Of a stretch of DNA of 61,948 bases, positions 28,901 to 47,003 are shown piece after piece. Position numbers and translations under genes: made by a program. Origin of the DNA: a virus; the IMG/VR virus record IMGVR_UViG_3300029778_000002; one strand, written 5' to 3'. Below the pieces are notes generated by a model. That model saw only the letters and a list, made by a program, of their open reading frames with translations. It did not search any database and was not told where the DNA came from. Position 1 is the first letter of the stretch, and every line of letters starts with the position of its first letter.

Positions 28901-31900
28901 GCGTCGCTGGCTGCAACGTCACTGGGCGAATGGATGCCCCAGAAGGTGGTGAAGACATTCCGGATGGAGGTCGCCGCGTGCAGCATGTTGGCCTTGGCCT
29001 GCGCCAGTGCACTGGGGTCTGCAATGCCTTGTGCCAATCCCAACGTGATGTATTGGCCGATCTGCGCCATGACCTTGGACGGAGAATGGGTGTCGAAGGC
29101 CGTTTTGCTGGTATCAATTACGGCGTTTGCAACCTCTTCGGAAGCGTCCGTCGCATCTTTCTTGCCTTCGAGTTGGCCTTTTGCCACGCCTTCGCTTGCA
29201 TTTTTGCCAACGCCTGTGAACAGCTGGTAAAATCCGGCCGTCACGGAATTGCCATTCTTCAGTTCATCCAGAATATCTGCGAAAGGCAGTACAAAAGTCT
29301 GGGCCGAAACACCTTTGTCCTGTCCGCCCCAGTTTTTCGGATCAAGCGGATTGTGGTTTCCAGCCCATGTTGTAAACTTTGCCCATAGATCATTCAGTGC
29401 AGGCTCGATCTTTTCCCAGACATACGCTGTCAGGCTGACCACCGTATCAATAACAGTCGTCCCCAACACATACAATACCTGGCCGATTGCCGGAGCTGCC
29501 AGAATGATTGCATCGCAGAGGGCCTTGATGATCTTCGCAATGGAAGTCACCAGGCTGCTGGCAACCTCACCCAATCCCTCAAAAATACCGGCAATGAACT
29601 CAACCAGCATCCATGCCACGGCCTTAATGCCGTTCAAAAATACCTGGAAGTTCAGGCTATTCAGCAAACTCAGGCTGGATGCCAGATTACTGATGAACGT
29701 GGATGCCGAAGTCAGTGCCAGCAGTGCACCAAGGCTCAGTGCCAGCGCACTCAGAGAAAGACTCAGTGCTACGATTACCGGAGTCACAGGAGCCAGGATC
29801 ACTGCCGCACCGCCCATCACAACAAACGCACCGATGAGCGTCAACAGCCCTTTGCCGATGGTCTCCCAGCTCAGATTACCCAGACCCTGCAATGCAGGAA
29901 CCAGCAGATTCACTGCCGCAGCCATCATGGTCAGGCTGATTGCACTGCCGATGGTGCCTTTCGACAGATTCAGTGCTACTACAAATGCTGCAAGGCCTCC
30001 CGCCACCGCAGTAAGCCCACGGCCAATGGATTCCCAGTCCATTTCACCGAATTTTGCAACGGCATCCTGAAGGATCTCCATGGATGCAGCCATCAGTACA
30101 AAGCCAGTACCCTTCCCAATGCCGAATTTCGTGCCATTCATCAACTTGGCGGCGACCACCAGCTCGGCGCACAGTGCTCCCACTCCGGCAATCCCCTTAG
30201 CAAGTGCTGTCACGCTCAGGCCGCCTAAGGCTTTTACACTGACTGCCAGGATACGGATGCCTGCCGCAAAAGCGATCATGCCCGCAGCACCCTTGGTGAA
30301 CCGCCCTCCATCTCTTGAGAGAATGACTGCAACTAATGTCAGCTCTGCCATCACGCCGCCAAGTGCCACCACACTGCCGAGCAGCTTGTCGGAATCAATG
30401 GACGAAATAACTTTCAGTGCACCCGAGAGCACCAGCACCGCAGCCGAGACAGCCACCATACCACCGGCCAAAACGCTCAGCTTCAGGCTTTGAACATTCT
30501 TCGTCAGATGGGTCATAACGGCCATCACGCCCAGCAGTTCGCCGAATGCGACCGTCAGTACGCCAATGGCCGCACCAAGTCGATCTGCTTTCACCATGGA
30601 GAGAACAGCCAGTGAACCGGCCATCAATGCCACAGCCTTTGCAATCGTCATCAGGGTGTCTGCCTTCTTGGCTGATTTCCACGCATCGATTGCTTCGCCC
30701 AGAGATTCGATGCAGTTTTTGATGCCGCCGACCACATCCTTTGCACTGGAACCGATGGACTTGATGCTTTCAAAGAACCCCTTGAGGGAGACCAACATAC
30801 TGGCTCCCATGCCGCCCAGAATAAACTGATTCAGTTTCTCTGGGTCAAATTCATTGAATGCTTCTTTCGCACCCTGTGCAAGCTGTGCAAAGATCTTGTC
30901 CGCAACAGAGCCAAAAGAATAAAGCACCGGAGCAGCCGCATCCACAAAATTGGTCACCCAAGTACCAATGGTATCCAGCGGGTGAATCCCTTTCGTGATC
31001 TCCGAAGCAAATTCACCGGCAGCCGATGCCGCATCCAGCAGAATATCGGCCAAAGGCTTTGTCAGGTTCAGAACCCGTGCCACACCAGAAATGATACCTT
31101 CCAGAATATCTTTCCCGACTCGCAAAACAGAGAATACGCCCTCTGCGGTTGTCTTGATCTTCTTGGCCGTATCATCACTGATGATAAGCTTCTTTGTGAT
31201 GCTGTCTAGCCATTGTGCAAAGCTCTTGATCTCCTCGCCTGTCTTTGGCGGGAAAATATCTTGAAATGCCTCATGGATGGGCTTCACTATGGCACTCACT
31301 GCATCCATCAGGTTCCACAGGCTCTGCATCAGATGCTCTCGTCCCGAGAGTTCCCGGATCTGTTTCGAGTATCCTTCCAGATCAAGCGTTCCATTTTGAA
31401 CCTTTTGATTCAGTTCTTCAAATGCGCTCGCCTGTTTCTCAATTTCTTCCCGCTCAAGCCCTCGCGCCTTCAATTCGGCATCGCTCAGGGTCAGCATCTT
31501 CTCTGCACTTGCCTGTGCTTCATCCAGGCCTTTTTTCAAAAGATCTGCACTGATGCCTCCCTGTTTGATGGCTTCGCCAAAACTACCTGCATCGGAGATC
31601 TGCTTTTCAGTGATCGCACCGGAAGCCAGTGCCACCTGCTCCATGGTATACGCATACACGTCTGCCTGATCGCCCAGCTCATTTTCAAGCAGTTTATTCC
31701 ATCCGCTGTTCAGTCCGTCCTTCAGCCGTTCGTTCAGCCCGTCGATGCTGGGCACGAAAATGTCGTACAGCCGGTCTGAAAGCTCCGTCCAGGTCTCGGT
31801 GGCCTCTTCCTTGTTGCCAAAGAAGGTCTCGAAGACTTTCATCCAGGAAGAGCTGACCGCGTCCTTGGTGGAATCAATGGCCTGTCCAAAACTGGTTGCC

Positions 31901-32844
31901 TGCTGGGCCGCCAGTGCCGCACGTTCTGCCAGTTCACCGTATTGACCGCTCAGCTTTTCAAGGGCCTCGGAGCTGGTCATGCCCGGGTTCTTCTGGGTCA
32001 GCTCATAGGCCGCCTCCATCATGGAAGCATACTTTGCGAAGGTCTTTTCCATGACCTCAGTGTTGGCCCACTTCTTCTGCAGGCTCGACTCAAAGCTGGC
32101 GATGGTCACCTCGCCCTTTTTCAGAGTGCCCAGCTCCACCGCTGTGTCAATGAGCTCCTGCTTCAGGGCCTTGGTGGCCGTACCCATCAGGTTCAGGCTC
32201 TTCCAGTCCTGAAGCTGCAAATGTCCGGCGCTGTAGCTCTGGGTCAGGTTCCGGATGGTGCTCTGGAACGCAAAGCCCGTTTTGCCCGCGTCTGCGGTGG
32301 CGTTGGCAATGCCCATGATCATGGGGATCATCTTGTCGATGTTGCCGCCCGCAGCCGTCATCTGGGAAAGGGCGCTGGTCATCTCGCTGAAGCTGTAGCT
32401 GGTCTCATCGGAGTACCACATCAGCTTGTTCAGGTAGCCGTTCACCTGATCGATGCTCTTGCCCGTGGCGTTCATGATGGTCTGAACGTTGGAGGTCTTT
32501 TCGGTGTACTTGTCCCAGCCGCTGGCCACCTGATCGATGGACAGGCTCTTGACCAGCTTCTCGCCCGCGTCCACAAATTTGTTGGTGATGTTCACCAGCG
32601 CCGTGGTGGCCACGATGTTCAGGCTCGAGAACTTGGATTCCAGCCGGTCAAGGCTCGTCTGCATGGTGGCAAAGTCCACGTTCTCCGCGGCTGCGTCCAG
32701 CTTCTCAAAGCCCTTTTCCGCTCCCTTAAACTGGAGCTTCTCCATCAGCCGGTCAATGGTCAAGATGGTCTGCTTGGTATTTTTCTCAAAATTTGCGTTG
32801 TCAAACCGCATTTCAACAACGCGGCTGTCTACTTCCTGGCTCAT
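25963..32844 (-). CDS. Tape measure protein (2293 aa)
   Basis: Start at ATG 32844 (ATGA overlap, GAGG SD). Huge Ala/Gly/Leu-rich protein with a central hydrophobic glycine-zipper segment, in the canonical position. Confidence 0.9.
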   Translation of the reverse strand: MSQEVDSRVVEMRFDNANFEKNTKQTILTIDRLMEKLQFKGAEKGFEKLDAAAENVDFATMQTSLDRLESKFSSLNIVATTALVNITNKFVDAGEKLVKSLSIDQVASGWDKYTEKTSNVQTIMNATGKSIDQVNGYLNKLMWYSDETSYSFSEMTSALSQMTAAGGNIDKMIPMIMGIANATADAGKTGFAFQSTIRNLTQSYSAGHLQLQDWKSLNLMGTATKALKQELIDTAVELGTLKKGEVTIASFESSLQKKWANTEVMEKTFAKYASMMEAAYELTQKNPGMTSSEALEKLSGQYGELAERAALAAQQATSFGQAIDSTKDAVSSSWMKVFETFFGNKEEATETWTELSDRLYDIFVPSIDGLNERLKDGLNSGWNKLLENELGDQADVYAYTMEQVALASGAITEKQISDAGSFGEAIKQGGISADLLKKGLDEAQASAEKMLTLSDAELKARGLEREEIEKQASAFEELNQKVQNGTLDLEGYSKQIRELSGREHLMQSLWNLMDAVSAIVKPIHEAFQDIFPPKTGEEIKSFAQWLDSITKKLIISDDTAKKIKTTAEGVFSVLRVGKDILEGIISGVARVLNLTKPLADILLDAASAAGEFASEITKGIHPLDTIGTWVTNFVDAAAPVLYSFGSVADKIFAQLAQGAKEAFNEFDPEKLNQFILGGMGASMLVSLKGFFESIKSIGSSAKDVVGGIKNCIESLGEAIDAWKSAKKADTLMTIAKAVALMAGSLAVLSMVKADRLGAAIGVLTVAFGELLGVMAVMTHLTKNVQSLKLSVLAGGMVAVSAAVLVLSGALKVISSIDSDKLLGSVVALGGVMAELTLVAVILSRDGGRFTKGAAGMIAFAAGIRILAVSVKALGGLSVTALAKGIAGVGALCAELVVAAKLMNGTKFGIGKGTGFVLMAASMEILQDAVAKFGEMDWESIGRGLTAVAGGLAAFVVALNLSKGTIGSAISLTMMAAAVNLLVPALQGLGNLSWETIGKGLLTLIGAFVVMGGAAVILAPVTPVIVALSLSLSALALSLGALLALTSASTFISNLASSLSLLNSLNFQVFLNGIKAVAWMLVEFIAGIFEGLGEVASSLVTSIAKIIKALCDAIILAAPAIGQVLYVLGTTVIDTVVSLTAYVWEKIEPALNDLWAKFTTWAGNHNPLDPKNWGGQDKGVSAQTFVLPFADILDELKNGNSVTAGFYQLFTGVGKNASEGVAKGQLEGKKDATDASEEVANAVIDTSKTAFDTHSPSKVMAQIGQYITLGLAQGIADPSALAQAKANMLHAATSIRNVFTTFWGIHSPSDVAASDAENILEGAILGIGDKTKQDELRQASYSGALVMKDGVLQAMDETVIAIQKKMPELYDAFKQSSLHPGNLLYQNGLSGAMNDFSDAMDDTIVIPGKTGMKRAGSSRNATKAEIAGAKQGNADAQKNLKNPYGILSSWYQNAVDDALDGAGGGTTKSKASKAGKSLADTLTSAFSDQLKANKTEMSNATGEYALWEVTGGDTATVEELITKKTESLTKEIELQTKRVAIAKEQYDTLLAKVGANNSKTKDAYGTLLSEQKTLAELQRSKQDSILKVIQERYETDAKTAEDEYELWSALYEDSAEVTEKSNKKIDYINRKIKNQAEILLATEKDYIAIKNEFGEASQKTQAAYQQYLEAQTEQQKLINELNQAQLDAYDSKVSYLEKQEKLVTNRQNMLAKLYGDGDLAGREDAYKAAVEQYGADSAQARKAATQGTMTAIIGVGTALDSMSYSLKKVTNKQLKYDEAVKKFGKNSETALDALADLQSEQYSFVGFAENLADAFELDDSGKRMMMQLGYSISKNWRPIQEGFNSVWAQVQKSAPEMASKLSRAFGVATKDGVTEVITDLFGTITALVSGDWGGAVTGGITTVLDFMGTEFGRLMMSKGMNALLGLPKAFSALAQGGGTLKVMGQVVKVTGVTENLGSILGNMSGLLGSATGGTGLLGEALGGLGSIGEMITGSGGLLGGLGELGGTLVSVLGSIGPEGWLIGAAIAGGGLLIANWDQVSEFFSGFFDWLGNAFSHLWDWISNGFKGLVDVGGNLISGLWQGITGAAGAVWNGICDFGSSIVDGFCDFFGIHSPSRVMAGIGEYLSLGLAQGITDETGSVVQGVQDVSDTALSTMMDLAQRVGDIASDDFEYEPSIQPVVDMSDVQNGVDWLNDTLFQNGTVALNAERTAGLAANVVRRAEVTKAQQEEANKVDQKANPNADIVSSVEALGEHIDSIARAVANMKVQMNGRKLVGEIINDVDEGLGKINRRNNR

Positions 32845-33227
32845 TCTGTCCTCACCTCGCCCCATGCCCGTGCTGCGATCCGCTCAAAAATGGGCCGCAT
32901 CGCAGGGTTGATATAATCCACGCCCTCTACGTATCCTCCGTTTCGTGTGCCGTGTCCGTATTGCAGGATCACCGCAATGGGCACACCGTCCACGATGTTG
33001 GAGTTTCTCCATGTAATGGCGATGCGCTCTTTTCCCTTGGTCACCGTGTAGCTCCAGCTTGCCGCCGTCTTTCCCGTGTCCTTCGGGGTTGCTTTTGCAA
33101 GGGCCTCCACGCCCTCCTGTCCGTATCGGTCCAGCAGCTCATCCAGGCTCAGGTTCGAGCATCGCTTCAAAAATTTCCGGCTCTTCTTCCAGTCGCCCTT
33201 CTGGCGAAAGACAATTACTTTTGGCAT
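32841..33227 (-). CDS. HK97 gp10-family neck/tail component (128 aa)
   Basis: The ...AKATPKDTGKTAASW...ILQYGHGTRNGGYVEGVDYINPAM pattern is gp10-like. Confidence 0.5.
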   Translation of the reverse strand: MPKVIVFRQKGDWKKSRKFLKRCSNLSLDELLDRYGQEGVEALAKATPKDTGKTAASWSYTVTKGKERIAITWRNSNIVDGVPIAVILQYGHGTRNGGYVEGVDYINPAMRPIFERIAARAWGEVRTE

Positions 33228-36091: not shown

Positions 36092-37873
36092 TTAAGCAGC
36101 CCACTCAACAGCCATGGCGCTGAACGGGGTGGTCAGAGCGCCGGAGCAGCGGGTCTCGATCAGGTACTTCTGGGCGTTGAAGTCGATGTCGAAGTCGTCG
36201 AACATGGAAACAGCGCCGCCCTTGTCTGCGCCCACGGTGTAGTCGGCCAGGTTCACGATCAGGCAGACCAGGTCACCGCCCTTGGCACCCTTGCGGCCCT
36301 CCATCTCGGGGATGGTCACAATGTTCTTCACACGCAGCTTGCGGGCCAGAGCAGCCTCGTCAGCATACAGCGGGTGGCCGATGCCGTCCTCCAGCAGGAG
36401 CATCTCGGTCAGAGCGTCCTCCGTGGTGAACAGGGTGGGGGTGCCGGAGCCGCGGTACTCCTTGCGGCTGCGCAGGATCTGCTTGATCAGGGCCTTGTAC
36501 TTGTCCTCCACGGTGGTCAGGCCGGTGGTCTTGCACTGGACCTTGATGGTAAACAGGTCGCTGTCGTTGAACACAGGACGGATGCAGTTCTCGTCGATCT
36601 TGTCCTCAGAAGCAGCCAGACGACCGTCGCCCAGCAGGTAAGCCAGAGCCAGCTCACGGTTCAGCTTCAGGCGCATCTCCTGCTTCAGCCATGCCACAAC
36701 GTCAAAGCTGGTAATGTCGATCACGTCGTCGCGGTCCAGCTTCTGCTTCTTGTATACGGTGGTGGGGCTGGTGGAGCGGCGCAGCAGGCCAAAGACCTCT
36801 TCCTTCTTGAAGTTGCCCTTGAAGTAACCCTTTGCGCGGGCATCCTCCTCGGTCAGGTCAGCAAACATGCTCTTGAACCGGCTGAAGGGAATGTGGTGCA
36901 CAGCGCCCATGACCACGCTCACCCAGTCGTCGGGCTTGTCAATGATGCGGGGCGTGGTGTCCAGCAGGTGATCCTCAGGGAACAGCCAGTCGATGTTGTC
37001 GATGCTGTGGGCCAGCTCGTCACTGTCCATGCCGGCATCCTCAAAGGCAGCCTTCATGGTGCCGTGGCTCTTTGCGGTCTTGACCACGTTGTTGATCTCA
37101 TCGATGCTGTGCTTCAGCACGGTTGCGTTGGTATCCTTGTCGAAAACATTCTGCTTCACGGTATCGTCCTCCTCACCGTCATCGTCCTTTTCACTGGGCA
37201 TAACAGAGCCAATGATCGCGTATACGACATTTTTCTGCTTCTCCGTCAGGGTGTTGAACACATCCTCAACGGTCTCTTCTTTGTTCATGTTCTTTTCGTC
37301 CGCCATTTTGGCTTCCTCCTGTGTTACTTTGTCGTCGGTCACGGCATCGCCGCTGTCCGCACTGTGTGTAAGGTCTTCCAGCGGGTTGCCCTCGGGGTCC
37401 ATGCCATGGGTCAGGCTCAGGCCGTCCTCGTTATAGATAAAGGCCTCGCCGCCCTCGTAGTCCTCATCGGCGCTGTGCTTTACCACCTCGTCGATCAGGG
37501 CACCCGGGTTGCATCCGGCCAGTACCAGGCTCACTTCCCGGATAAAGCCGTGCTTCACGGTGCTGCCCACCTTCTTCAGGCCGTTGGCAAAAATGGAAAA
37601 GGCGCTCAGGTCGCCGCTCTCCACGCACTGTCTTGCGGTCTTGCCGGTGTCGGTGTCGTTGAATTTGGCATAGCAGTACACGCCACCTGGCCGGTTCTCC
37701 AGCAGGCAGTGGCCGATCACATTGTCCACGTTGGCGTGGTCGTGGTTGTACACCATGGGCACAACCTTGCCGCTGCACTCCTTAAAGGCATCCTGTGCGA
37801 TCACCAACCCGTCATAGCACCGGACGTTCGCTTTCGTTGCCCAGCCGCTGCAATCGTAGTCAAAATTAACCAT
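36092..37873 (-). CDS. Prohead protease - scaffold-like linker - HK97-fold major capsid protein fusion (593 aa)
   Basis: N-terminal protease-like block (VPMVYNHDHANVDNVIGH), an acidic Lys/Glu linker, and a C-terminal capsid block (DDFDIDFNAQKYLIETRCSGALTTP). ATG 37873 overlaps the portal stop. Confidence 0.75.
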   Translation of the reverse strand: MVNFDYDCSGWATKANVRCYDGLVIAQDAFKECSGKVVPMVYNHDHANVDNVIGHCLLENRPGGVYCYAKFNDTDTGKTARQCVESGDLSAFSIFANGLKKVGSTVKHGFIREVSLVLAGCNPGALIDEVVKHSADEDYEGGEAFIYNEDGLSLTHGMDPEGNPLEDLTHSADSGDAVTDDKVTQEEAKMADEKNMNKEETVEDVFNTLTEKQKNVVYAIIGSVMPSEKDDDGEEDDTVKQNVFDKDTNATVLKHSIDEINNVVKTAKSHGTMKAAFEDAGMDSDELAHSIDNIDWLFPEDHLLDTTPRIIDKPDDWVSVVMGAVHHIPFSRFKSMFADLTEEDARAKGYFKGNFKKEEVFGLLRRSTSPTTVYKKQKLDRDDVIDITSFDVVAWLKQEMRLKLNRELALAYLLGDGRLAASEDKIDENCIRPVFNDSDLFTIKVQCKTTGLTTVEDKYKALIKQILRSRKEYRGSGTPTLFTTEDALTEMLLLEDGIGHPLYADEAALARKLRVKNIVTIPEMEGRKGAKGGDLVCLIVNLADYTVGADKGGAVSMFDDFDIDFNAQKYLIETRCSGALTTPFSAMAVEWAA

Positions 37874-39122
37874 TTTGATTTGCAATACTCCTCTCTACGG
37901 CATCCCGCCCTGCCGTGATTGTTTTGTTCTGCGCCGCAATTTCCTCACTGCTCTGGCTGATGTTTGCATTCCGCAGTTCATCTGCCTTGGGGTCCTTGCT
38001 GGGTTTCATGCCAATGGCCTGCCGGAACTCGTTGGAGGTCATGATCTCGTTGCGGGTAAACTTGTCGGCCATTTCGGCAACGGCGGAAACAGGGGTCAGC
38101 TTGAACGGGTCGCGGAAGTACATCACGGATTCCCGGTTCGCCCGGTCGTCCTCGGTCAGGAACTTCCGCCGGATCTCGTCCACGGCAGCCGCCACAATGG
38201 GTTCGATGGTGCGGTTCTCGTAGTTGGTCATCACAGCATCGGAAGCAGTACCGTTCATGATCTCCGGGGTGATACCCAACTGGCTGTATGCCATGTTGGT
38301 CAGGTACTCCACGGTTTTCAGAAGGTTGTTTTCGAGGCTGCGGTTCAGCTGCGTGATATGCTCCGTGCCATCGGTGTAGGCAATGCCGTATTTGGAACCG
38401 GCGAGCTGCTGTTCGATCTGTGCCCGCCGTTCTTCGGCCTGTTTCTTCCGGGTCTCGCCCTTCACAACGTAGGGCAGCTGGATGATCAGGTCGAGCTTGC
38501 CGCTGCCCACCTGCTCGTCGATCACGTCCATCAGGTTCAGCTTCCGGATCAGGCGCTGCACCGTGCCGTTGGGCTCGTTCATCACGGCATAGAACGGGTT
38601 CTCCACCAGGGCCACCTGTGTCTTCGGCAGGGTGATTTCCTCTTTCCGTCCGGTCCGGTCGTTGTACACTTCCAGCCGCACGTCGTCCGGGTACCATTCC
38701 AGCACCTTTCCCACCCGCATGGATTCGATCCGGGTCTTACCGGTCTTCCCATCGTAGTCCACGTCAATGGGCACCAGCGCAACGCATCCCTCATCCAGCA
38801 TGGAAAGGAACATGTCATATCGCAGTGCCCGGCCCGTCTGGTCCTTATTGCCGGAAAGGTTCAGGCAAGAATTAAGGCCCGAATCAACGGTTTCGTCGTA
38901 GCGTCCGTTTTCATCGAGCCTTACATGATTGATGGTAATTGCCGCAGCGTCCATTGCAATGCGGGTGTTGATGGCCGTCATGATCGTCCGGTCATTGCTT
39001 CGGTTCAGCCTTACCCGGTCGGGGCGGTAGCTGTATCCTTCGCCGCTTCTTCCGGGGGGATCACGGTTCAAAAACGCATTCCAGGCGTGTCTCAGTCTGG
39101 AGCCAAAGGTTTGTGATGTCAT
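37866..39122 (-). CDS. Portal protein (418 aa)
   Basis: GGAGGG SD. Assigned by size and by position upstream of the protease-capsid gene. Confidence 0.75.
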   Translation of the reverse strand: MTSQTFGSRLRHAWNAFLNRDPPGRSGEGYSYRPDRVRLNRSNDRTIMTAINTRIAMDAAAITINHVRLDENGRYDETVDSGLNSCLNLSGNKDQTGRALRYDMFLSMLDEGCVALVPIDVDYDGKTGKTRIESMRVGKVLEWYPDDVRLEVYNDRTGRKEEITLPKTQVALVENPFYAVMNEPNGTVQRLIRKLNLMDVIDEQVGSGKLDLIIQLPYVVKGETRKKQAEERRAQIEQQLAGSKYGIAYTDGTEHITQLNRSLENNLLKTVEYLTNMAYSQLGITPEIMNGTASDAVMTNYENRTIEPIVAAAVDEIRRKFLTEDDRANRESVMYFRDPFKLTPVSAVAEMADKFTRNEIMTSNEFRQAIGMKPSKDPKADELRNANISQSSEEIAAQNKTITAGRDAVERSIANQNG

Positions 39123-39138: not shown

Positions 39139-39591
39139 TTACACTTCTGTGTATTGAGCGTACATACGGCCTCTCGTTTCGTTCTTATACGCTTTTTCCG
39201 CCGCCATATTTGTGAGCGCCCTTGCTACGGCATGTTTGGCCGCATTTTTAGCAGCCGAACTAACTTTACCTCCAGTCAGATAGTCATAGACATATACGCT
39301 TGCTACCGCCCTTGAAACAGCCTTTCCTCGTGCAATTCGCTTCTTTTCTCTCTCCACAGCGGTCTTTTTATCCATTCCCTTGGAATAATCCTTTTCGATT
39401 CGGTTTGCGCCTTTAACGCCATAGTCCATTCGATACATTGTTTTTTGATAACTTGTAAGCTTACGATCAGGGTCGCCATATTTTTTCTTTCCCGCCGCAG
39501 TTAAAGTACCATCAGGGTTCTGGTAACGCCGTACACCCCACTTCATGCCCTTGATGCCATGATGATACAGCTCATCTTTATAAACTTGCAT
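39139..39591 (-). CDS. YHxGIKGMKWGVRR-leader family protein A (150 aa)
   Basis: Start moved to ATG 39591 (AAGGAGG SD). N-terminus MQVYKDELYHHGIKGMKWGVRRYQNPDGTLTAAGKKKY. Confidence 0.6.
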   Translation of the reverse strand: MQVYKDELYHHGIKGMKWGVRRYQNPDGTLTAAGKKKYGDPDRKLTSYQKTMYRMDYGVKGANRIEKDYSKGMDKKTAVEREKKRIARGKAVSRAVASVYVYDYLTGGKVSSAAKNAAKHAVARALTNMAAEKAYKNETRGRMYAQYTEV

Positions 39592-39601
39592 TTTTTCCTC
39601 C

Positions 39602-40030
39602 TTATGCACCATGTGCCTTCATCGTTGCGGTCAGTGCGCATCCAACAACAGCGTTCTTAAACGCCCCAGATTCAACAATACTCTTGCCGAGCTTCATCGC
39701 GTTCGAACCATTATTATAAAGCGTTGTAACAGTCCCAAGCGCCGTGGCAGTTGCTCCGGCAATTTTAATGGCTTTCTGTAGCTTGCTGGGAGAAGCAGTA
39801 AGCCGTTCATACTGTTGCTCTTTCTGCAATCGATTGATTCGAGCATTCAGTTCGCTGTCACTCATTTCACGGACACTTTTCTTTGTATGTGCTCGTGTAT
39901 AGTCCTCGTGATCTTGACTATAGTGTTTCTTTCCTTCAGAAGTAAGTGTACCATCCTTGTTCTGGTATCGTCGCACGCCCCATTTCATGCCCTTGATGCC
40001 CCAATGATAAAGTTCATCCCTGTATACCAT
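39602..40030 (-). CDS. YHxGIKGMKWGVRR-leader family protein B (142 aa)
   Basis: Start moved to ATG 40030 (GAGGAGGTG SD). N-terminus MVYRDELYHWGIKGMKWGVRRYQNKDGTLTSEGKKHY. Confidence 0.6.
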   Translation of the reverse strand: MVYRDELYHWGIKGMKWGVRRYQNKDGTLTSEGKKHYSQDHEDYTRAHTKKSVREMSDSELNARINRLQKEQQYERLTASPSKLQKAIKIAGATATALGTVTTLYNNGSNAMKLGKSIVESGAFKNAVVGCALTATMKAHGA

Positions 40031-40098
40031 AATGTTCACCTCCTCACAAACAAAAAAAACGCACCAGCAATTAAGCTGATGCATTCAGATGTACCGTA

Positions 40099-40302
40099 TT
40101 ACGGAATGATGTCTAAAATAGATTCGCACATCGTTCCTATCTCATTTGGAAAGTAATTGTCATCCAGCCCCCGATATTCCAGTTCATCGCCGACTCGTTC
40201 TTCGATTTCGGCCCACTCATCGGAAAAATTATCGATTTTGGTATAATCGTAATCAAGCCCCAGACTTTTCAAAAAATCGATCTGTTTCTCGGTAAGCATC
40301 AT
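40099..40302 (-). CDS. Small acidic protein, immunity/antitoxin candidate (67 aa)
   Basis: Starts 4 nt after the stop of the toxin-like gene. Rich in D/E. Confidence 0.45.
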   Translation of the reverse strand: MMLTEKQIDFLKSLGLDYDYTKIDNFSDEWAEIEERVGDELEYRGLDDNYFPNEIGTMCESILDIIP

Positions 40303-40305
40303 GGA

Positions 40306-40728
40306 TCACCTCTTAGTGTATTTTCGGATTACATCATGCCCTGTTTTCCAGACAGTCGTGACACAGCCATTTTCGGGGTTTACGTTTACCGTAGCGTGCT
40401 GGCCAATAAACCGTTGACTAGGCTGTCCCTTCTCATTATACCGCACCTTTATTGTATCAGAGTTTAGCGGCTTTTGCAACGCATCCAGCAATCCTTCCAG
40501 AGTCACCTGTCTGGTAGGGTCTTGGGTACGGTCCAGTGCATGAATCGATAGACCTTTCACAAGGACACCATTTGAGGTATAAAATGGTTTTCTGAATTTC
40601 CGAGCAGCTCTCGCTTCGATTGAATATCGGTCATGCGCGAGTTGTTCTTTTGTCCTCCGAACACCCCACTTCATACCTTTGATTCCGTAATGGTACAGTT
40701 CCGTTGTACCATCATTCCATCGCCACAT
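40306..40728 (-). CDS. Leader-family protein C with C-terminal RNase-toxin-like domain (140 aa)
   Basis: Start moved to ATG 40728 (AAAGGGG SD). N-terminus LYHYGIKGMKWGVRR. The C-terminus IHALDRTQDPTRQVTLEGLLDAL...FIGQHATVNVNPENGCVTTVWKTG resembles DUF4258/BECR-fold toxins. Confidence 0.5.
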   Translation of the reverse strand: MWRWNDGTTELYHYGIKGMKWGVRRTKEQLAHDRYSIEARAARKFRKPFYTSNGVLVKGLSIHALDRTQDPTRQVTLEGLLDALQKPLNSDTIKVRYNEKGQPSQRFIGQHATVNVNPENGCVTTVWKTGHDVIRKYTKR

Positions 40729-40807: not shown

Positions 40808-41860
40808 ATGGCGGACGACAAACAGCTTTCCATGCAGAACCTTAATTGCGAAGTGACCGCAAGCGATGTTTCTTTTGATTTTGGCGATACATCCCGCTTT
40901 CGGAAGATTAAATTTCCGGAGCAGGCTGGCATTACAGCAAACGCCCTTCTACAGCTGGTTCCGGCGCAGCTTGTGGCTGGCACGGCATCCAATCTGTATG
41001 TTCTCCATTTTCCGAAGGGCATTCAGGGGGCTTTAATGAACCTCCATCAGGGCGGTCAGTCCACCACAATGATAGACGCAGCAGGCAGTTTTGCCGGAAG
41101 TGCATCTCTGTATAAGGTCAATCCCACAGCAGTTGCTGCCTTCCAGATGTTCAGTGTAGCATCTTTTGCAACAGGCCAGTATTTTCTTGCAGATATCAGC
41201 TCCAAGCTGACAGAGGTCAACCGGAAGCTGGACGACCTTCTGGCATTCCTTCAGGCATCCAAGCGTACTGAGCTGCTGTCAGAGCTTACCTTCGTAAAAT
41301 ATGCGCTCGCAAATTACGCAACTATCATGCTCAGTGAACCGCAGCGCATGGCTACGATCGGGAATCTTCAGCGAGCAAAAATCAAAGCGGTTGCGGACAT
41401 AGAATTTTACACAGAGCAGCTGGAGAGTTCTGCTGCTGCAAAGTCCAACGAAAATCAAGCAAAAACTGTATTGCAGAACAAACAAGGAATTGATCTCGCC
41501 TCGCAGCTTTACGCCATCAGCACGATCATGGAAGCGTATTATTCGCAAAACTGGAACCAATCCTATCTTGCAAATATCAGCGCTGATGCAAAGCCTCTGT
41601 TTGCACTGACGCAGAACCGCATGATCAGTGCCATAACAAAATTCTCCGACAGAATCAGCAAGGACCTTGAAAGTAAGAAAAAGGGCCTGCTGAAAGGTGA
41701 TGTATCACAGAGCGAACATAAAGTTCTGAAACTGTACGACACTCTGAATTCGCAATCGGAGACTCCGCTTCTTGCGTTTATTGAAGAAGCACTGGACAAG
41801 CCCTCCGAGCCATTTGAACTCTACCTCCGTTCTGACGGAAGTGTTTATCAAAAAATCTAA
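40808..41860 (+). CDS. Unknown-function protein (350 aa), opposite-strand moron
   Basis: Own promoter, SD and terminator. Reads as mostly helical. Inserted between terL and portal. No family recognised by eye. Confidence 0.7.
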   Translation: MADDKQLSMQNLNCEVTASDVSFDFGDTSRFRKIKFPEQAGITANALLQLVPAQLVAGTASNLYVLHFPKGIQGALMNLHQGGQSTTMIDAAGSFAGSASLYKVNPTAVAAFQMFSVASFATGQYFLADISSKLTEVNRKLDDLLAFLQASKRTELLSELTFVKYALANYATIMLSEPQRMATIGNLQRAKIKAVADIEFYTEQLESSAAAKSNENQAKTVLQNKQGIDLASQLYAISTIMEAYYSQNWNQSYLANISADAKPLFALTQNRMISAITKFSDRISKDLESKKKGLLKGDVSQSEHKVLKLYDTLNSQSETPLLAFIEEALDKPSEPFELYLRSDGSVYQKI

Positions 41861-41871
41861 AAACAAGAAAC

Positions 41872-41919
41872 CGCCAGAGTACTACGTTCTGTTCCGTAAT
41901 ACGCTGGCGATTTTGTTTT
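41872..41919 (+). terminator. Terminator of the plus-strand moron (possibly bidirectional)
   Basis: CGCCAG...CTGGCG hairpin followed by ATTTTGTTTT. It abuts the terL stop. Confidence 0.55.
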
Positions 41920-43663
41920 ACTCAAACGCATCCCGGTTCTGTTTCCACGCCACATAAGCGTCCATCATAGCAGCCACGGCATCGATCTTCTGATCCTGCC
42001 GCTGTTTGTAGAGTTTCCGGTTGCCGTTGGTATCCACCAGCGTAATGCAGTTGCCCATGGCAAATTGCATCAGCTGTTCGTCAAACAGCAGTTTCCGCTG
42101 TTCGCTCAGCTTTTTCAGCTCACCCAGCGGCACGCTTTCGGTCTTTGCACCCTGGATCACTTTCACAACGCCAAAGGTGCTGTTTTCATCGCCCCAGCGC
42201 TTCACGAACTCCTGTGCGTTGTAGGGGTCGTAGCCAAACGCCCGTACGTCGTACTCGTTCTCCATGATAAAGTTGTCCAGGTCATCGTACACCTGCATCA
42301 TGTCCAGAACCGTGCCGTCAAACACGAACAGGGTCCCTTCCCGCATGAACTCCTCATACTGCTGCCGTCTCGAAGCCGGAAGCTGGCTGAGGGTGTAGGA
42401 TGTGATGTAGTCCCGCGTCTTGACCCCAAAATATCCGTTGGACAGCGGAAACAGGAAGGTAAAGGCGCAGAAGTCGTCGCCCATGGAAAGGTCCGCGCCC
42501 ATAGCACAGGGCATCTGCCAGAAGCTTCTCTTCCTGTGGCACAGGGTCTCCTCGTAGGGGAAGAAATAGGTGTAGCCCTCCATGGGCAGGTTGAAGCGCT
42601 TGGCCAGAATATCGTTTCGGGCGCTGGGGGATTTCTCCGCACGCTCCACGTCCAACTGGTAGGTCTCGTAGCTCACGGTCTTGCCCAGGTTCGGGTTGGC
42701 CTTCAGCCACATCTCCGGCTGGCCCACTTCCTCGATGGAATCCAGCTTGTAGTACCAGATGGACACATGTGGGTTGACGTACTCCCCTTTCAGGATGCTC
42801 ATCAACTCCATTTTGATGTCGTCGCCGCAGCCGTTGCGCACCGTGCCCTCGGAGGAAGCCGCCACGATGAGGTAATTCTCGTTCTTGGCCGCGCCCTGCT
42901 CAATGGCACCAATGGGGTCTTCCCGGATGTCGCAGGAGAGCCACTCGTCCACGGTCGCCACAGTGTCGCGCCGTCCTTGCAGCTTCTCAATGGTCATCGG
43001 GCGCACTTCCAGAAGGCTGTTGGTCAAAAAGTTCTCGATGCCCTTCTTGGTGGAAGCCATCTTCACCCGGTCTGCCTTAGAGCCGGTGGTGTTTTGCAGG
43101 CTGCCCTCGGTCATAAACTGGAACACCGGTCCCTTTGCCCGCGCCAATGCGGTGCGGAAGGGTGCCAGCACCTCCTCGGCCTGTTTCATGGTCGGGGCGG
43201 TGGTCAGCTGCTGGGTCGTGGTGGTGTACGCCGTCAGAAAGTACGCCTGCAAAAACTCCAGATACATGGTCTTCGCGGCCGATCGGGTAATGATGAGGTA
43301 CTGCTTTGTCACCAGCCGCTTTTTCAGCCGCCGGGTCTCGTAGTGTCCGCCGCCTCCGCGCTCGTTCGGCACAAAGACGCTTCGTTCTACAAAGTAGTAC
43401 CATCCAAAGATCTCTTCAGCCCATAACTTGAAACTGTCCAGCAGCTTCACGTCGGTGCCGTCGGTCAGGGTCAGCTCATCCTCGCAAAAGGAGATAAAGC
43501 CGTTCACTGCTTTGTCGTCATAGTAGATGCCCGGGTTGGCGATCAGGTCGTCGATCCGCTCCATCTCCATGGCAATTTCCCGGCATACGGGTATTTCGCC
43601 ACGCATCACGGCCTCCCGAAAACGGCCGTAGTAGATCGGCGTGGCCGTGTTCGAGAGTGCCAT
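41918..43663 (-). CDS. terL: Terminase large subunit (581 aa)
   Basis: Start moved to ATG 43663 (AGGAGA SD). ATPase then nuclease layout, with a typical Terminase_1-like N-terminus (PIYYGRFREAVMRGEIPVC). Confidence 0.85.
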   Translation of the reverse strand: MALSNTATPIYYGRFREAVMRGEIPVCREIAMEMERIDDLIANPGIYYDDKAVNGFISFCEDELTLTDGTDVKLLDSFKLWAEEIFGWYYFVERSVFVPNERGGGGHYETRRLKKRLVTKQYLIITRSAAKTMYLEFLQAYFLTAYTTTTQQLTTAPTMKQAEEVLAPFRTALARAKGPVFQFMTEGSLQNTTGSKADRVKMASTKKGIENFLTNSLLEVRPMTIEKLQGRRDTVATVDEWLSCDIREDPIGAIEQGAAKNENYLIVAASSEGTVRNGCGDDIKMELMSILKGEYVNPHVSIWYYKLDSIEEVGQPEMWLKANPNLGKTVSYETYQLDVERAEKSPSARNDILAKRFNLPMEGYTYFFPYEETLCHRKRSFWQMPCAMGADLSMGDDFCAFTFLFPLSNGYFGVKTRDYITSYTLSQLPASRRQQYEEFMREGTLFVFDGTVLDMMQVYDDLDNFIMENEYDVRAFGYDPYNAQEFVKRWGDENSTFGVVKVIQGAKTESVPLGELKKLSEQRKLLFDEQLMQFAMGNCITLVDTNGNRKLYKQRQDQKIDAVAAMMDAYVAWKQNRDAFE

Positions 43664-43696
43664 TTTCAATTCTCCTATTATAATAAGGTTGGAACC

Positions 43697-44617: not shown

Positions 44618-45208
44618 TTATTCCTCCTCGGCATCGCTGTAGCCACCCATAATGTAGCTCATCATGGCATAATACCAGTCCTTCTGAGCCCTCGCCAGAA
44701 GTTCCAGTTCGGCCAGATTGTGGGGCGCGCCGTCCTTCCCCATGGCCGCTTCTTTCTGTGCACTCTCCTCGACCAGCTTGGCCAGCCTCCCCGCATCTAT
44801 TGCCACTTGACCAGGCTTCAGCAAAACGAGGTCTCCCCCAGCACTCGGAGCAGCGTTTTGTGCGGTCACAGCCTGATTCTCATCCCTCCGCGGGACAATC
44901 TTCATCCCATCAAACGTGATATCCCCGGCCCGTGTTGCCCGCACCTGCTGCCCATCAACATTTGTCGCCAGAGCATTGTCAAAGTCAAAGCCTTTGTTCC
45001 GCGGTACAGCCGTATAGCCCTGCTGGATCCCGGCTTCCGCAATGCCCACGTTCGCCCAGAGCAGTGCTTCGTCCAGCTTGGTCAGTGCCAGGCTTCTCGC
45101 ACGGCTCGGTGCAAGGTGCTGGAGCATCGCCTCTGCCTCTTCCAGCTTCCGCCGCAGCCCCATGGCATAGTCCTGCTCTCGCCGGTTAAATGCTTTTTTC
45201 TGGTACAT
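44618..45208 (-). CDS. Hypothetical protein (196 aa)
   Basis: Start placed at ATG 45208, 8 nt after GGAGG. Alternative ATG/GTG codons lie up to 45223. Confidence 0.5.
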   Translation of the reverse strand: MYQKKAFNRREQDYAMGLRRKLEEAEAMLQHLAPSRARSLALTKLDEALLWANVGIAEAGIQQGYTAVPRNKGFDFDNALATNVDGQQVRATRAGDITFDGMKIVPRRDENQAVTAQNAAPSAGGDLVLLKPGQVAIDAGRLAKLVEESAQKEAAMGKDGAPHNLAELELLARAQKDWYYAMMSYIMGGYSDAEEE

Positions 45209-45242
45209 ACTCATTTCCTCCACTGGATATCAGACTTTTTTC

Positions 45243-45271
45243 TTTACATACAACATATGGATTGATATACT
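45243..45271 (+). promoter_or_regulatory. Sigma-A type promoter with extended -10 for the second plus-strand moron
   Basis: TTTACA (45243-45248), 17-nt spacer ending in TGA, TATACT (45266-45271). Confidence 0.6.
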
Positions 45272-45309
45272 TATCTCAAACGGTTTTTCTTATACTTCGG
45301 AGGCAATAT

Positions 45310-45654
45310 ATGCAGTCTTACACCTGTCCCAACTGCGGTGCTCCTGTAAAAATGGATGACCACGGTGCATTTCTCGAGTGTCCTTATTGTGGATCACAGT
45401 TCAAGCCCGATGATTCTTCATCTGATGAGCCAAGCAGTCGTCAAACGGATTCGGACGATGATAACGAAGAACTTCGCACCTATGCAGAAATAGTAAATCG
45501 CCATATTCCAGAATTTTCGGTCACCGAATTTATCGATAGAGCCAAGCATATTCTCGAAAGAACTCTTGATTTTCTCGGTGATCACGGAATGTACATCCAA
45601 GTCGGTGTCGTTTTGCTTTTTGTCGCCTTAGCCATTGTCAGTTTCTTCTTGTAA
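45310..45654 (+). CDS. Zinc-ribbon, C-terminally membrane-anchored protein (114 aa), moron
   Basis: GGAGG SD before ATG 45310. CPNCG...CPYCG motifs, an acidic linker and the TM helix VGVVLLFVALAIVSFFL. Confidence 0.6.
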   Translation: MQSYTCPNCGAPVKMDDHGAFLECPYCGSQFKPDDSSSDEPSSRQTDSDDDNEELRTYAEIVNRHIPEFSVTEFIDRAKHILERTLDFLGDHGMYIQVGVVLLFVALAIVSFFL

Positions 45655-45836: not shown

Positions 45837-46385
45837 TTATTTATACTGATACTTAACCCATGGATCATCAGGGAGTACCGACGATTCGTCCAACTTAAAT
45901 CCGGATTTCTCGGCGATTTTTATAGATCCAGCATTATCTTTTCTGGCCCACCAGACAATTTGGTCGTATTCGTCTTTATGTGCGTCCAGCCATTTCATGC
46001 CTTTTTCGGCTACTTTTGAGCAATAGCCCTTGTTCCGATACTTACTTCCAGCTCTTGTTCCAATGGAGACCGCCACTCCTTTTTCATCACCAATGATGTC
46101 AAAAAAAGAAATAGGCACATCCCCTGATTTTTCAACAAAACGTTTTACGTATGCATACCCATCCTCGGCTCTTTCCTGATAAACATCCCCATCAAGGTTG
46201 AGGAGTTCTCTGTCTTTTCGAGACATTGTTTTTACAATTTCGTTTACAGCATCCATGTTTTTGTTTACATCCATGGCACGCTTCCGCGCTTTCCCCTCAC
46301 TCGTCAATGTTCCATCCGGGTTCTGGAACCGGCGCACGCCCCACTTTTGGCCCTTGATGCCATGGTGATAAATATAATCGCTCAT
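45837..46385 (-). CDS. Leader-family protein D with C-terminal GNAT acetyltransferase-like domain (182 aa)
   Basis: Start moved to ATG 46385 (GGAGGAAATAAA-ATG). N-terminus IYHHGIKGQKWGVRRFQNPDGTLTSEGK. C-terminus RNKGYCSKVAEKGMKWL...NAGSIKIAEKSGFKL. Confidence 0.6.
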   Translation of the reverse strand: MSDYIYHHGIKGQKWGVRRFQNPDGTLTSEGKARKRAMDVNKNMDAVNEIVKTMSRKDRELLNLDGDVYQERAEDGYAYVKRFVEKSGDVPISFFDIIGDEKGVAVSIGTRAGSKYRNKGYCSKVAEKGMKWLDAHKDEYDQIVWWARKDNAGSIKIAEKSGFKLDESSVLPDDPWVKYQYK

Positions 46386-46386
46386 T

Positions 46387-46830
46387 TTATTTCCTCCATG
46401 GGCAGGTGTCGCCCGGCTTCCGTTCACCATCCGGCATATTTTTATTTTGACCGGTGCCATAATGGATCACCTTGTGCGTTGCCGCCGAAACACAAATGGC
46501 GTTCTCCGGATCAAGCAGTTTTTCGCTGTGCTGGAGAACGTCATTTTTTGTTATGGGGTTTATGTGGTGGATGGAGATCTTCGGTCGGATCGGCCTTCCG
46601 TCCCGCAGCACCCAGTCTGTGATCGGATGGTCTTTGCACCCCAGGTCGCATCCCATGTCCCGGGCGATGATTCTGTCCCTGAACTGCCGCCACTCTCTCG
46701 ATTGGTAGAAGTCCTGGTTCAGCCATCGGTCAAACCCAAAGGTGTCTCTCCCCACTTCCCCGTGCAGCTGTAAATACTCCAGCCTCTCCTCGTATGTCGG
46801 CAGGGTGCAAAGTTCCGTGTAGCTTTTCAT
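46387..46830 (-). CDS. HNH endonuclease (147 aa)
   Basis: Start placed at ATG 46830 (ATGA overlap). Contains ISIHHINPITKND...NAICVSAATHKVIH. Confidence 0.8.
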   Translation of the reverse strand: MKSYTELCTLPTYEERLEYLQLHGEVGRDTFGFDRWLNQDFYQSREWRQFRDRIIARDMGCDLGCKDHPITDWVLRDGRPIRPKISIHHINPITKNDVLQHSEKLLDPENAICVSAATHKVIHYGTGQNKNMPDGERKPGDTCPWRK

Positions 46831-47003
46831 CCAAACAGCCTCGTACATTCGCAAAGAAACAAAACCAGCCCTAGGATGCCGCAGCCCATCAGTGCGCTTG
46901 CACTCACCGGATTGTCCGGCCTATTTCCAAGCCATGCCGCTACCAGAAAAATCATTAAATAAAGAAGGATGTTGGGTATCAATATCAACTCATATTCCAT
47001 CAT
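46827..47003 (-). CDS. Small membrane protein (58 aa)
   Basis: GGAGAGG SD 9 nt before ATG 47003. Two hydrophobic helices. Confidence 0.45.
   Translation of the reverse strand: MMEYELILIPNILLYLMIFLVAAWLGNRPDNPVSASALMGCGILGLVLFLCECTRLFG

Follow-up and report, generated by a model that had tools for sequence, protein, structure and literature searches.

Why should four phage genes whose products otherwise diverge completely begin with almost the same 30 amino acids? The question is raised by a stretch of viral DNA of 61,948 nucleotides, the IMG/VR virus record IMGVR_UViG_3300029778_000002 (hereafter, the window), which comes from a relative of the Faecalibacterium phage FP_oengus and shares 82% nucleotide identity with it across the head region. 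Three of the genes, which we call A, B, and C, lie between the large terminase gene (terL) and the portal gene, and the fourth, D, lies upstream of terL. Their common leader corresponds to the Pfam family PF23847 (DUF7211), a 25-position model of a family without an assigned function, and our literature search found no mention of DUF7211, or of its core string GMKWG, in a phage context. Based on the analysis presented here, we propose, with a confidence only a little better than even, that DUF7211 acts as a docking peptide by which one constant minor protein, along with a variable set of effectors, is loaded into the procapsid for delivery with the DNA, and that the RNA polymerase of the phage possibly travels likewise.

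The DUF7211 leader and the four proteins that carry it

The initial annotation had described a nearly identical leader of about 30 residues on four genes, and all four were recovered, each on the minus strand and each with an ATG start and a good ribosome-binding site. Their N-termini are MQVYKDELYHHGIKGMKWGVRRYQNPDGTLT for A (39139-39591), MVYRDELYHWGIKGMKWGVRRYQNKDGTLT for B (39602-40030), MWRWNDGTTELYHYGIKGMKWGVRRTKEQLAHD for C (40306-40728), and MSDYIYHHGIKGQKWGVRRFQNPDGTLT for D (45837-46385). Against PF23847, whose gathering score is 27 bits, A, B, and C score 40.8 (E 1.4e-10), 41.2, and 44.0 bits, respectively, and D, with 26.3 bits, is marginally below the cut-off. A hidden Markov model (HMM) that we built from 140 non-redundant leaders detects residues 1-37 of A (39481-39591, E 8e-24), 1-36 of B (39923-40030, E 1e-22), 1-33 of D (46287-46385, E 3e-21), and 1-33 of C (40630-40728, E 7e-16); the next open reading frame (ORF) in the six-frame translation of the window has an E of 0.16, and a regular-expression scan of the six frames returns exactly four copies.

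The consensus of the leader is an aromatic-rich start followed by DELYH[HY]GIKGMKWGVRRYQNxDG(T/S)LT, a basic stretch of about 30 residues in which H, G, W, and G are invariant in alignments of 47 and of 64 sequences, including those of Actinobacteria phages. The leader of C represents a sub-type, WGVRRT.xQL.H, without the YQNxDGTLT hairpin. The segments that encode the four leaders have a nucleotide identity of only 67-79%, and the residues that are identical between leaders are specified by different codons at 33-75% of the positions; conservation therefore acts on the peptide and not on a DNA repeat.

Beyond the leader, the proteins are unrelated, as had been claimed, and belong to four separate families of the 60 C-terminal families described below. 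Gene B encodes the core DUF7211 protein (142 aa), in which the leader is followed by a conserved helix, DYTRAH..SD.EL..RINRLQKE.QY, and by a hydrophobic tail rich in Ala and Gly. The initial annotation had noted the Ala-rich tail, which is present, and had missed that, alone in the family, B is near-universal: its C-terminal family 0, to which gp69 of FP_oengus also belongs, is the constant one, with occurrences in 64 of about 82 loci, while the other families are sporadic. In a collection of proteins at 90% identity, the family of B comprises 6,715 clusters, and the conserved helix recurs as a second motif in gp013 of the Rhodococcus phage ReqiPepy6 and in orf7 of the Lactococcus phage 1706. 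The AlphaFold2 model of B is helical, with a predicted local distance difference test score (pLDDT) of 47 and no confident fold. FP_oengus possesses the core gene only, and the phage of the window possesses the core gene and three accessory ones. One of these is gene A, whose product (150 aa, isoelectric point [pI] 10.0) joins the leader to a basic helical tail; its C-terminal family 2 is present in 8 of the loci examined.

The product of gene C (140 aa, pI 10.1) joins the leader to an alpha/beta domain of about 100 residues that had been described as RNase-toxin-like. In its AlphaFold2 model, residues 41-140 reach pLDDT values of 81-92, and the leader 48-58. The top Foldseek match of the domain in the PDB is the CdiA-CT tRNase of E. 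coli NC101 (5i4q_A, E 0.035, probability 0.94, TM score 0.50), followed by RelE and by colicins E5 and D; no PDB match was obtained at E <= 0.001. A search of BFVD returned a phage DUF4258 protein (probability 0.98), and every sequence homologue of C that was found also carries DUF7211. The description is a reasonable one, and the structural matches weakly suggest that the domain may resemble the RNase toxins of the BECR fold.

Only three nucleotides past the stop codon of C starts an acidic ORF of 67 aa (40099-40302, minus strand, pI 4.1), which had gone unmentioned when the three adjacent leader genes were correctly identified. This ORF accompanies the C-type gene in all five loci with that C-terminal family (L004, L005, L006, L056, and L073), and its charge is complementary to that of C. 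The 67-aa ORF matched no Pfam family, and neither this ORF nor the 59-aa ORF of locus L011, discussed below, matched a known immunity family. We infer that the 67-aa ORF is a candidate immunity protein.

Gene D encodes a protein of 182 aa with a GNAT acetyltransferase domain (Acetyltransf_3, E 7e-8; Acetyltransf_1, E 1e-4) that found no match in a sequence search of the PDB. It is located directly downstream of an HNH endonuclease-like gene (46387-46854, minus strand), homologous to genes annotated as HNH endonuclease in FP_oengus and in the Streptomyces phage TaidaOne, and it occupies the same position in L006, L011, and L056. Orthology between D and the GNAT protein gp10 of TaidaOne was considered and rejected, because the leaders alone align and the GNAT domains are not alignable. 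By eye, a GNAT signature, LEVPGxSxDARHIYEKxGFK...VWxGLTxMxR, is common to TaidaOne gp10 (L003:5956-6951) and to L056:8807-9313, from a relative of the Faecalibacterium phage; both of these GNATs sit behind a DUF7211 leader, and that of D is of a different type.

Position, lineage, and exchange of DUF7211 genes

A search with the leader profile returned 33,824 clusters at 50% identity (E <= 1e-3) among 1.84 billion representatives. IMG/VR contains at least 591 stretches with a coding sequence for the leader; 79 loci were taken for analysis, 48 of which hold from 2 to 6 copies. The number of copies per phage varies from 1 to 9, with the maximum of 9 in one genome contig. A tblastn search with the leader matched 135 phage records, mainly of Streptomyces, Arthrobacter, and Gordonia phages.

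The position and the strand of these genes are strict. Across the 143 loci in which terL has a homologue, 365 motifs were counted, every one of them on the strand of terL; 200 of them fall between terL and the portal gene and 118 between the HNH gene and terL (together 87%), only 9 are in other resolved positions, and no DUF7211 gene was found in the early or replication regions. In the window, the main slot is bounded upstream by terL (41918-43669, minus strand; phrog_9, E 9e-107), whose homologues reach E ~1e-280 in all related loci, and downstream by the portal gene (37866-39122, minus strand; phrog_12, E 6e-38), which is also conserved in all of them, while the HNH gene is the upstream boundary of the second slot. 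Locus L134 (JAEEHF010000085.1, 40418-60540) is the only long locus whose DUF7211 genes do not adjoin terL: it contains five motifs in four ORFs, at a distance of 15-35 kb from the terL and portal genes (L163) of the same contig of about 90 kb.

The genes that surround the leader are also largely constant. The same terL, the same portal, and the same fusion of the prohead protease to the major capsid protein occur in nearly all of the 79 IMG/VR loci and in 67 of the 75 loci from bacterial genomes or metagenome-assembled genomes (MAGs), together with the same RNA polymerase wherever the flank of the related loci reaches far enough; the loci without the shared head module are mostly contigs of 1.5-2.7 kb. 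In the window, the fusion is a 597-aa ORF with an acidic linker (36092-37885, minus strand; phrog_3270, E 3e-209), an arrangement that is common to the whole lineage and that appears in related actinophage records as "major capsid and protease fusion protein". The module and the motif are found together in ReqiPepy6, in phage 1706, in the 135 phage records matched by tblastn, and in TaidaOne, where gp9, gp10, and gp11 are located between the terminase and the portal. DUF7211 is essentially confined to one lineage, the Oengus/1706/actinophage supercluster, in which protease and capsid protein are fused and the RNA polymerase is YonO-like. It is the lineage of Actinobacteria and Firmicutes phages reported by Koert et al. 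(bioRxiv 10.1101/842583), who took this polymerase as its signature and do not discuss the DUF7211 motif. The hosts named in the phage records are Gram-positive (Firmicutes and Actinobacteria). Contigs with the module (L096, L105, L107, L120, L126, L153, and L164) were also seen in MAGs labelled Bacteroidales, Parabacteroides, thaumarchaeote, Vampirovibrio, or Saccharibacteria, labels that probably reflect binning errors rather than true hosts.

In contrast to this constancy, the C-termini vary widely. In loci L001-L083, 190 DUF7211 ORFs were counted, with the motif starting at a median residue of 10 and at or before residue 24 in 95% of the ORFs, and with C-termini that fall into 60 unrelated families. 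No Pfam domain is present in most of the C-termini, which look helical or low in complexity. Those that can be recognised include three kinds of GNAT, the 2H/LigT phosphoesterase (for example, in ReqiPepy6 gp013, whose homologous genes in Gordonia phages are annotated as "RNA ligase"), Ntox50 (E 1e-19), and papain-fold glutamine deamidase toxins (Gln_amidase, papain fold toxin 1, E 3.5e-5 and 1.2e-6). Ntox50 is a BECR-fold RNase toxin trafficked by type II, type VI, and type VII secretion systems and by MuF (Zhang et al. 2012, PMC3482391).

Two traits of polymorphic toxins were found in this set: a conserved N-terminal part is joined to variable, known toxin domains (Ntox50 and Gln_amidase), and cassettes are replaced between close relatives with a breakpoint just after the leader. 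The replacement is seen by comparing the window with L011 (IMG/VR UViG_3300045988_124643), whose terL, B, A, and portal proteins are nearly identical to those of the window. In L011, a DUF7211-Ntox50 gene and an overlapping ORF of 59 aa with a weak LSM-like match (L011:6796-7469) take the place of C, the 67-aa ORF, and the plus-strand gene next to them. The Ntox50 protein and C have the same leader sub-type and diverge directly after WGVRRT. Judged by gene content and sequence, this exchange of C/67-aa for Ntox50/59-aa is the behaviour of polymorphic toxin/immunity cassettes. In addition, the A-type protein of L011 carries the C-type pre-motif MWQWNDGSMELYHYG; therefore, recombination inside the leader occurs.

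The leader had been described as N-terminal, which does not always hold across the family. Single polypeptides contain from 2 to 5 leaders in series, each of which opens a new module, and such proteins may be gene fusions or polyproteins. TaidaOne gp10 has the order leader, GNAT, leader, and tail, and in ReqiPepy6 gp013 the 2H domain precedes the leader. The top-scoring DUF7211 representatives (P0288-P0437, P0290 included) are proteins of 223-1,569 aa with 2-5 leaders. A second leader sub-type, KWGxRNGPPYPL, was found in 38 copies and accompanies deamidase-type proteins. In its full form, HHGILGQKWGxRNGPPYPL...DHSxxEKKAGWRKSLD, it was observed in L018, L023, L067, L077, and L093-L160, often on proteins of 290-460 aa, some of which have a papain-fold deamidase domain.

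A further candidate bearer of the leader is the RNA polymerase, whose gene is just upstream of the head module. This protein of 924 aa (48050-50824, minus strand; phrog_4291, 1199.6 bits, E reported as 0) is a YonO/RdRP-like single-subunit RNA polymerase candidate with a GADFDGD motif and with HTH domains at both ends. It belongs to the YonO/crAss-like DxDGD class, and its gene serves as the signature of the lineage (Koert et al., bioRxiv 10.1101/842583). Residues 20-44 (50693-50767, minus strand) contain the motif ILEHYGTKRHSGRYPWGSGDNPYQH, which had been put forward as a possible degenerate copy of the leader. The evidence supports this for the first half (DxLxHYGxK) only. The aligned N-termini of eight polymerases, from Faecalibacterium, Arthrobacter, Gordonia, Streptomyces, Lactococcus, and Microbacterium phages (six host genera), give the consensus [acidic]-x-L-x-H-Y-G-[TIVM]-[KP]-R-x-S-G-R-Y-P-W-G-S-G-[DE]-N-P-x-Q, which starts 8-22 residues from the start codon, at the same N-terminal distance as the leaders; the 133-aa N-terminal region matched 251 phage records.

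A profile-profile comparison with hhalign aligned the leader and the polymerase over the 15 columns of the first half with a probability of 91.6% and an E of 8e-7. Moreover, the pattern [DENST]x[LIVMFW]xH[HYWS]G[ITV][KRLPI] occurs 167 times in the 852,607 aa of the six-frame ORFs of the loci, and each of the 167 occurrences is in a DUF7211 leader, degenerate copies included, or in the polymerase. On this evidence, the first half of the leader is shared by the polymerase beyond what chance would produce. The second half is either a diverged sequence or one with an insertion (HYGVK-GMK-WG vs HYGVK-RRSGRYP-WG), and its SGRYPWG form was found on the polymerase only. By eye, no co-variation of the pre-motif was evident between the polymerase and the DUF7211 proteins of the same genome.

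A proposed route into the virion and its alternatives

What could such a leader do? A link with the virion is provided by phage 1706, whose orf7 (462 aa; GenBank EU081845) is a DUF7211 protein with two motifs (41.8 bits) and is annotated as a "structural protein"; the leader is also carried by phrog_35934, "virion structural protein". The leader itself has a pI of about 9.6-10 and is predicted to contain an NxDG-type turn. It lacks the hydrophobic stretch of a signal peptide of the Sec/Tat or KxYKxGKxW type, and the maximum Kyte-Doolittle value over 19-residue windows in the four proteins is 0.46-1.07, reached far from the N-terminus. In the AlphaFold2 models of B and C, the invariant leader residues are the least confident (pLDDT 31-58) despite being the most conserved. 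The models thus predict a leader that is unstructured on its own, and low confidence combined with conservation would be typical of a peptide that folds on a partner. A likeness to WXG/type VII secretion and to KxYKxGKxW motifs was considered and dropped, given that the spacing differs, the motif is far shorter than the WXG100 hairpin, and there is no hydrophobic core.

The leaders also tend to resemble each other within a genome. For paralogues with unrelated C-termini, the identity of the 8 residues before the invariant His is 0.52 within genomes vs 0.35 between genomes, and 0 of 300 label permutations reach 0.52, although this permutation ignores the relatedness of the genomes and recent duplication; the segment after the motif shows no such within-genome effect. 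The co-variation of the pre-motif could originate either from a shared genome-specific partner or from recombination within the leader.

We consider the loading of DUF7211 proteins into the capsid plausible because of the strict position and strand of their genes, their restriction to one head-module lineage, the annotation of 1706 orf7, the unstructured leader, and the co-variation within genomes. That the leader is a capsid-targeting or ejection signal had been suggested from the beginning; the anatomy behind that suggestion, a single leader on diverse effector-like C-termini inside the head module, was confirmed, and the function appears plausible from the sequences. In the mechanism that we propose, the DUF7211 genes would be expressed together with the packaging and head genes, and the unstructured leader would bind a conserved site on a lineage-specific head component. 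The portal is one candidate for this receptor; the protease or scaffold-like part of the protease-capsid fusion is an alternative candidate, as receptor or as processing enzyme, and no separate scaffold gene was evident in the window. The near-universal paralogue (type B; orf7 in 1706) would be a constant minor virion protein, and from 0 to 8 further paralogues would be cargo effectors, namely BECR-type RNase toxins with adjacent small ORFs, papain-fold deamidases, GNATs, and 2H phosphoesterases. The single-subunit RNA polymerase, with its diverged leader, may travel in the same way, and the cargo would be carried in the virion and delivered with the DNA into the next cell in this large lineage of siphophages of Gram-positive hosts. 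The steps that we infer are that the leader binds a head component, that the proteins are encapsidated and ejected, and that the leader may be removed by proteolysis. A more ambitious version, in which the leader is the universal loading tag, in a very large lineage with one of the most prevalent phages of the human gut among its members, of an effector-injection system that comprises the constant minor protein, up to eight interchangeable effectors, and, through a diverged tag, the phage's own RNA polymerase, seems to us possible but rather doubtful; under it, the 2H phosphoesterases could destroy cyclic-nucleotide immune signals.

Several observations weigh against loading into the capsid. 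Internal copies of the motif exist, and one polypeptide can hold up to 5 of them, which a simple N-terminal signal would not lead one to expect unless such proteins are processed or multivalent. If an RNase toxin were injected, the infection by the phage itself could suffer. The link with the virion is second-hand, since the "structural protein" label of 1706 orf7 is the annotation of a GenBank record and the "structural" notes of ReqiPepy6 rest on similarity to 1706, and the permutation test has the bias already mentioned. Published work on FP_oengus and on Arthrobacter and Gordonia phages contains no virion proteomics for this lineage. Our leader HMM did not match the N-terminus of the polymerase. 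Finally, a transmembrane-like segment is present in 26 of the 188 proteins (14%), and a strong one in 10 of the 60 families, which would also fit a localisation in the membrane; the four window proteins have none. The general idea that the DUF7211 proteins are membrane proteins was rejected on account of this low proportion.

Packaging may not be involved at all if the leader is an intracellular interaction motif that docks late proteins on a phage or host factor, such as the terminase/HNH complex, the ribosome, or nucleic acid, with roles restricted to the producing cell (e.g., host shut-off, counter-defence, or assembly chaperoning). So basic a leader could bind nucleic acid, the DUF7211 genes flank the HNH gene and terL, the related motif on the polymerase adjoins an HTH domain, and none of the virion evidence concerns the window's own proteins directly. 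However, this explanation seems unlikely to us: it leaves the confinement to one head-module lineage and the absence from early and replication regions unexplained, it is at odds with the annotation of the 1706 family member as a virion structural protein, and toxins with immunity-like ORFs would be odd in a cell that is already committed to lysis. The toxin and immunity layout, on the other hand, is like that of secreted polymorphic toxins, and it could be imagined that DUF7211 proteins are envelope-targeted or lysis-released toxins that aid lysogens. The leader would then act as a cytoplasmic anchor or, unconventionally, as a signal for export or retention, and the targets of the variable domains would be the membrane, the wall, or other cells nearby. 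Oengus is temperate, the hosts in the phage records are Gram-positive (the labels of some MAG bins notwithstanding), and, in the families with a transmembrane-like helix as well as in FP_oengus gp69, this helix comes soon after the basic leader, in agreement with the positive-inside rule. Nevertheless, such helices are missing from most of the proteins, including those of the window, a leader without a hydrophobic core is not a Sec signal, the RNase, GNAT, and 2H domains act in the cytoplasm, and the genes are in the late head operon and not placed like morons expressed in lysogeny, all of which makes this an improbable account.

We also assign a low probability to the leader being a recognition element for the prohead protease that marks the boundaries of polyprotein modules, with packaging secondary or absent. 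Natural polypeptides do consist of 2-5 leader-headed modules in series, the protease-capsid fusion is a hallmark of the lineage, and the targeting sequence of phage T4 is likewise removed by a prohead protease. Yet the products of most DUF7211 genes consist of one module whose leader is at the very N-terminus, with nothing upstream to cut, a leader-like sequence is not evident by inspection in the capsid fusion protein, and a prohead protease normally acts inside the procapsid, so that encapsidation would still be implied. The last explanation, a DNA-level artefact in which a recent duplication or a recombination "handle" encodes a peptide without function, is hardly credible. Recombination inside the leader occurs, as in the A-type protein of L011, and leaders are more alike within genomes; but the low nucleotide identity and the different codons for identical residues exclude a DNA repeat, the four invariant residues extend to the Actinobacteria phages, and the motif recurs in the Lactococcus phage 1706.

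The genes that DUF7211 marks are the most variable ones in a phage lineage distributed over Firmicutes and Actinobacteria, and the Oengus-like phages of this lineage have been detected in up to 40% of human gut viromes. The family is already catalogued, although only as a domain of unknown function; what would be new is the proposed role, as an unrelated implementation of a known principle. If DUF7211 is a packaging tag, these variable genes are explained as injected effectors and toxins, the RNA polymerase of the lineage is predicted to be a virion enzyme, tailed phages have a third, unrelated solution for loading cargo beside the T4 targeting sequence and MuF, and the tag could be reused to load arbitrary proteins into the capsids of Gram-positive phages. 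The proposal can be tested in the cultivable actinophages of SEA-PHAGES and in the Lactococcus phage 1706.

Genomic setting and known parallels

Nearly all genes of the window are on the minus strand. Read along this strand, the RNA polymerase candidate is followed by small genes, the HNH gene, D, a plus-strand Zn-ribbon ORF, a protein with an Acb2/Tad1 hairpin, DUF6275, a connector, terL, a plus-strand ORF of 350 aa, C, the 67-aa ORF, B, A, the portal gene, and the protease-capsid fusion. The hairpin protein (44618-45223, minus strand, 201 aa), located between D and terL, matches the Pfam Acb2/Tad1 hairpin domain PF24729 with 30.7 bits (E 3.6e-7; cut-off 27) and is a possible relative of the anti-CBASS/anti-Thoeris nucleotide sponges. 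Two ORFs on the opposite strand look like morons: the 350-aa ORF (40808-41860), which matches no family and is present in some relatives only (e.g., as FP_oengus gp68) and absent from L007-L011, and an ORF of 154 aa (45190-45654) whose product has a Zn-ribbon and is hydrophobic at its C-terminus. Two very long minus-strand ORFs follow downstream of the head genes, one of 2,300 aa (25963-32865), which corresponds to the tape-measure protein annotated in FP_oengus, and one of 1,334 aa (3076-7080). In TaidaOne, a coiled-coil gene lies between the portal and the capsid.

Among known systems, the capsid-targeting sequence (CTS) of T4 offers the same layout: like DUF7211, it is a short N-terminal peptide common to otherwise unrelated proteins, which in T4 are loaded into the prohead and injected. 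The internal-protein (IP) loci of T-even phages are hypervariable between related phages, as are the DUF7211 slots described here. For foreign proteins, too, the T4 CTS suffices for loading (Mullaney and Black, as cited in PMC9958956). The differences are considerable, since the CTS has about 10 residues, is removed by the gp21 protease, and targets the separate scaffolding core of a myovirus of Gram-negative hosts, whereas DUF7211 has about 30 residues with no sequence similarity to the CTS, occurs in siphophages with a protease-capsid fusion, and can be internal and repeated. Moreover, the encapsidation of DUF7211 proteins is a proposal, and the likeness to the CTS is one of layout only.

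MuF toxins (Jamet et al. 2017, PMC5576092; Zhang et al. 2012, PMC3482391) combine, as DUF7211 proteins do, a conserved N-terminal part from the head module with interchangeable toxins. The toxins of these systems, which include Ntox50 and papain-fold domains, are predicted to be packaged in the head, and their immunity genes are located downstream, near the terminase and portal genes (PMC5576092, PMC3482391). MuF folds into a domain of about 110 aa and is usually encoded by one gene per phage; DUF7211, in contrast, is a short peptide that occurs on up to 9 genes per phage and is joined also to helical tails and to enzymes other than toxins. The MuF domain (Phage_Mu_F/SPP1 gp7) was sought in the window's four proteins, in 64 representatives of the families, and in 8 proteins with several modules, and none of them matched it.

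The virion RNA polymerases (the N4 vRNAP, gp66 of crAss-like phages, and the polymerase of P23-45 fused to the tape-measure protein) are delivered with the DNA to start transcription, and there is a siphovirus precedent for such an enzyme (PMC10770324). The polymerase of the window is of the same YonO/crAss-like DxDGD class as the crAss-like virion enzymes; it differs from the virion polymerases in that it is known from its gene alone, carries only half of the leader, and is not fused to a tail protein. The cargo-loading peptides of encapsulins are also short and unstructured, are present on diverse enzymes, and dock inside a shell of the HK97 fold. They are usually C-terminal, differ in sequence, and belong to non-viral compartments, so the likeness is again one of layout and no homology is claimed. 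Polyvalent proteins (Iyer et al. 2017, PMC5512222) are described as multi-domain effectors that are predicted to be delivered with the DNA, and the DUF7211 polypeptides with 2-5 modules resemble them in layout; in DUF7211 proteins, in contrast, one short motif recurs at the head of each module, and most genes have a single module. Overall, by analogy with these systems, we propose that DUF7211 works like the T4 CTS and the MuF-toxin fusions while being homologous to neither.

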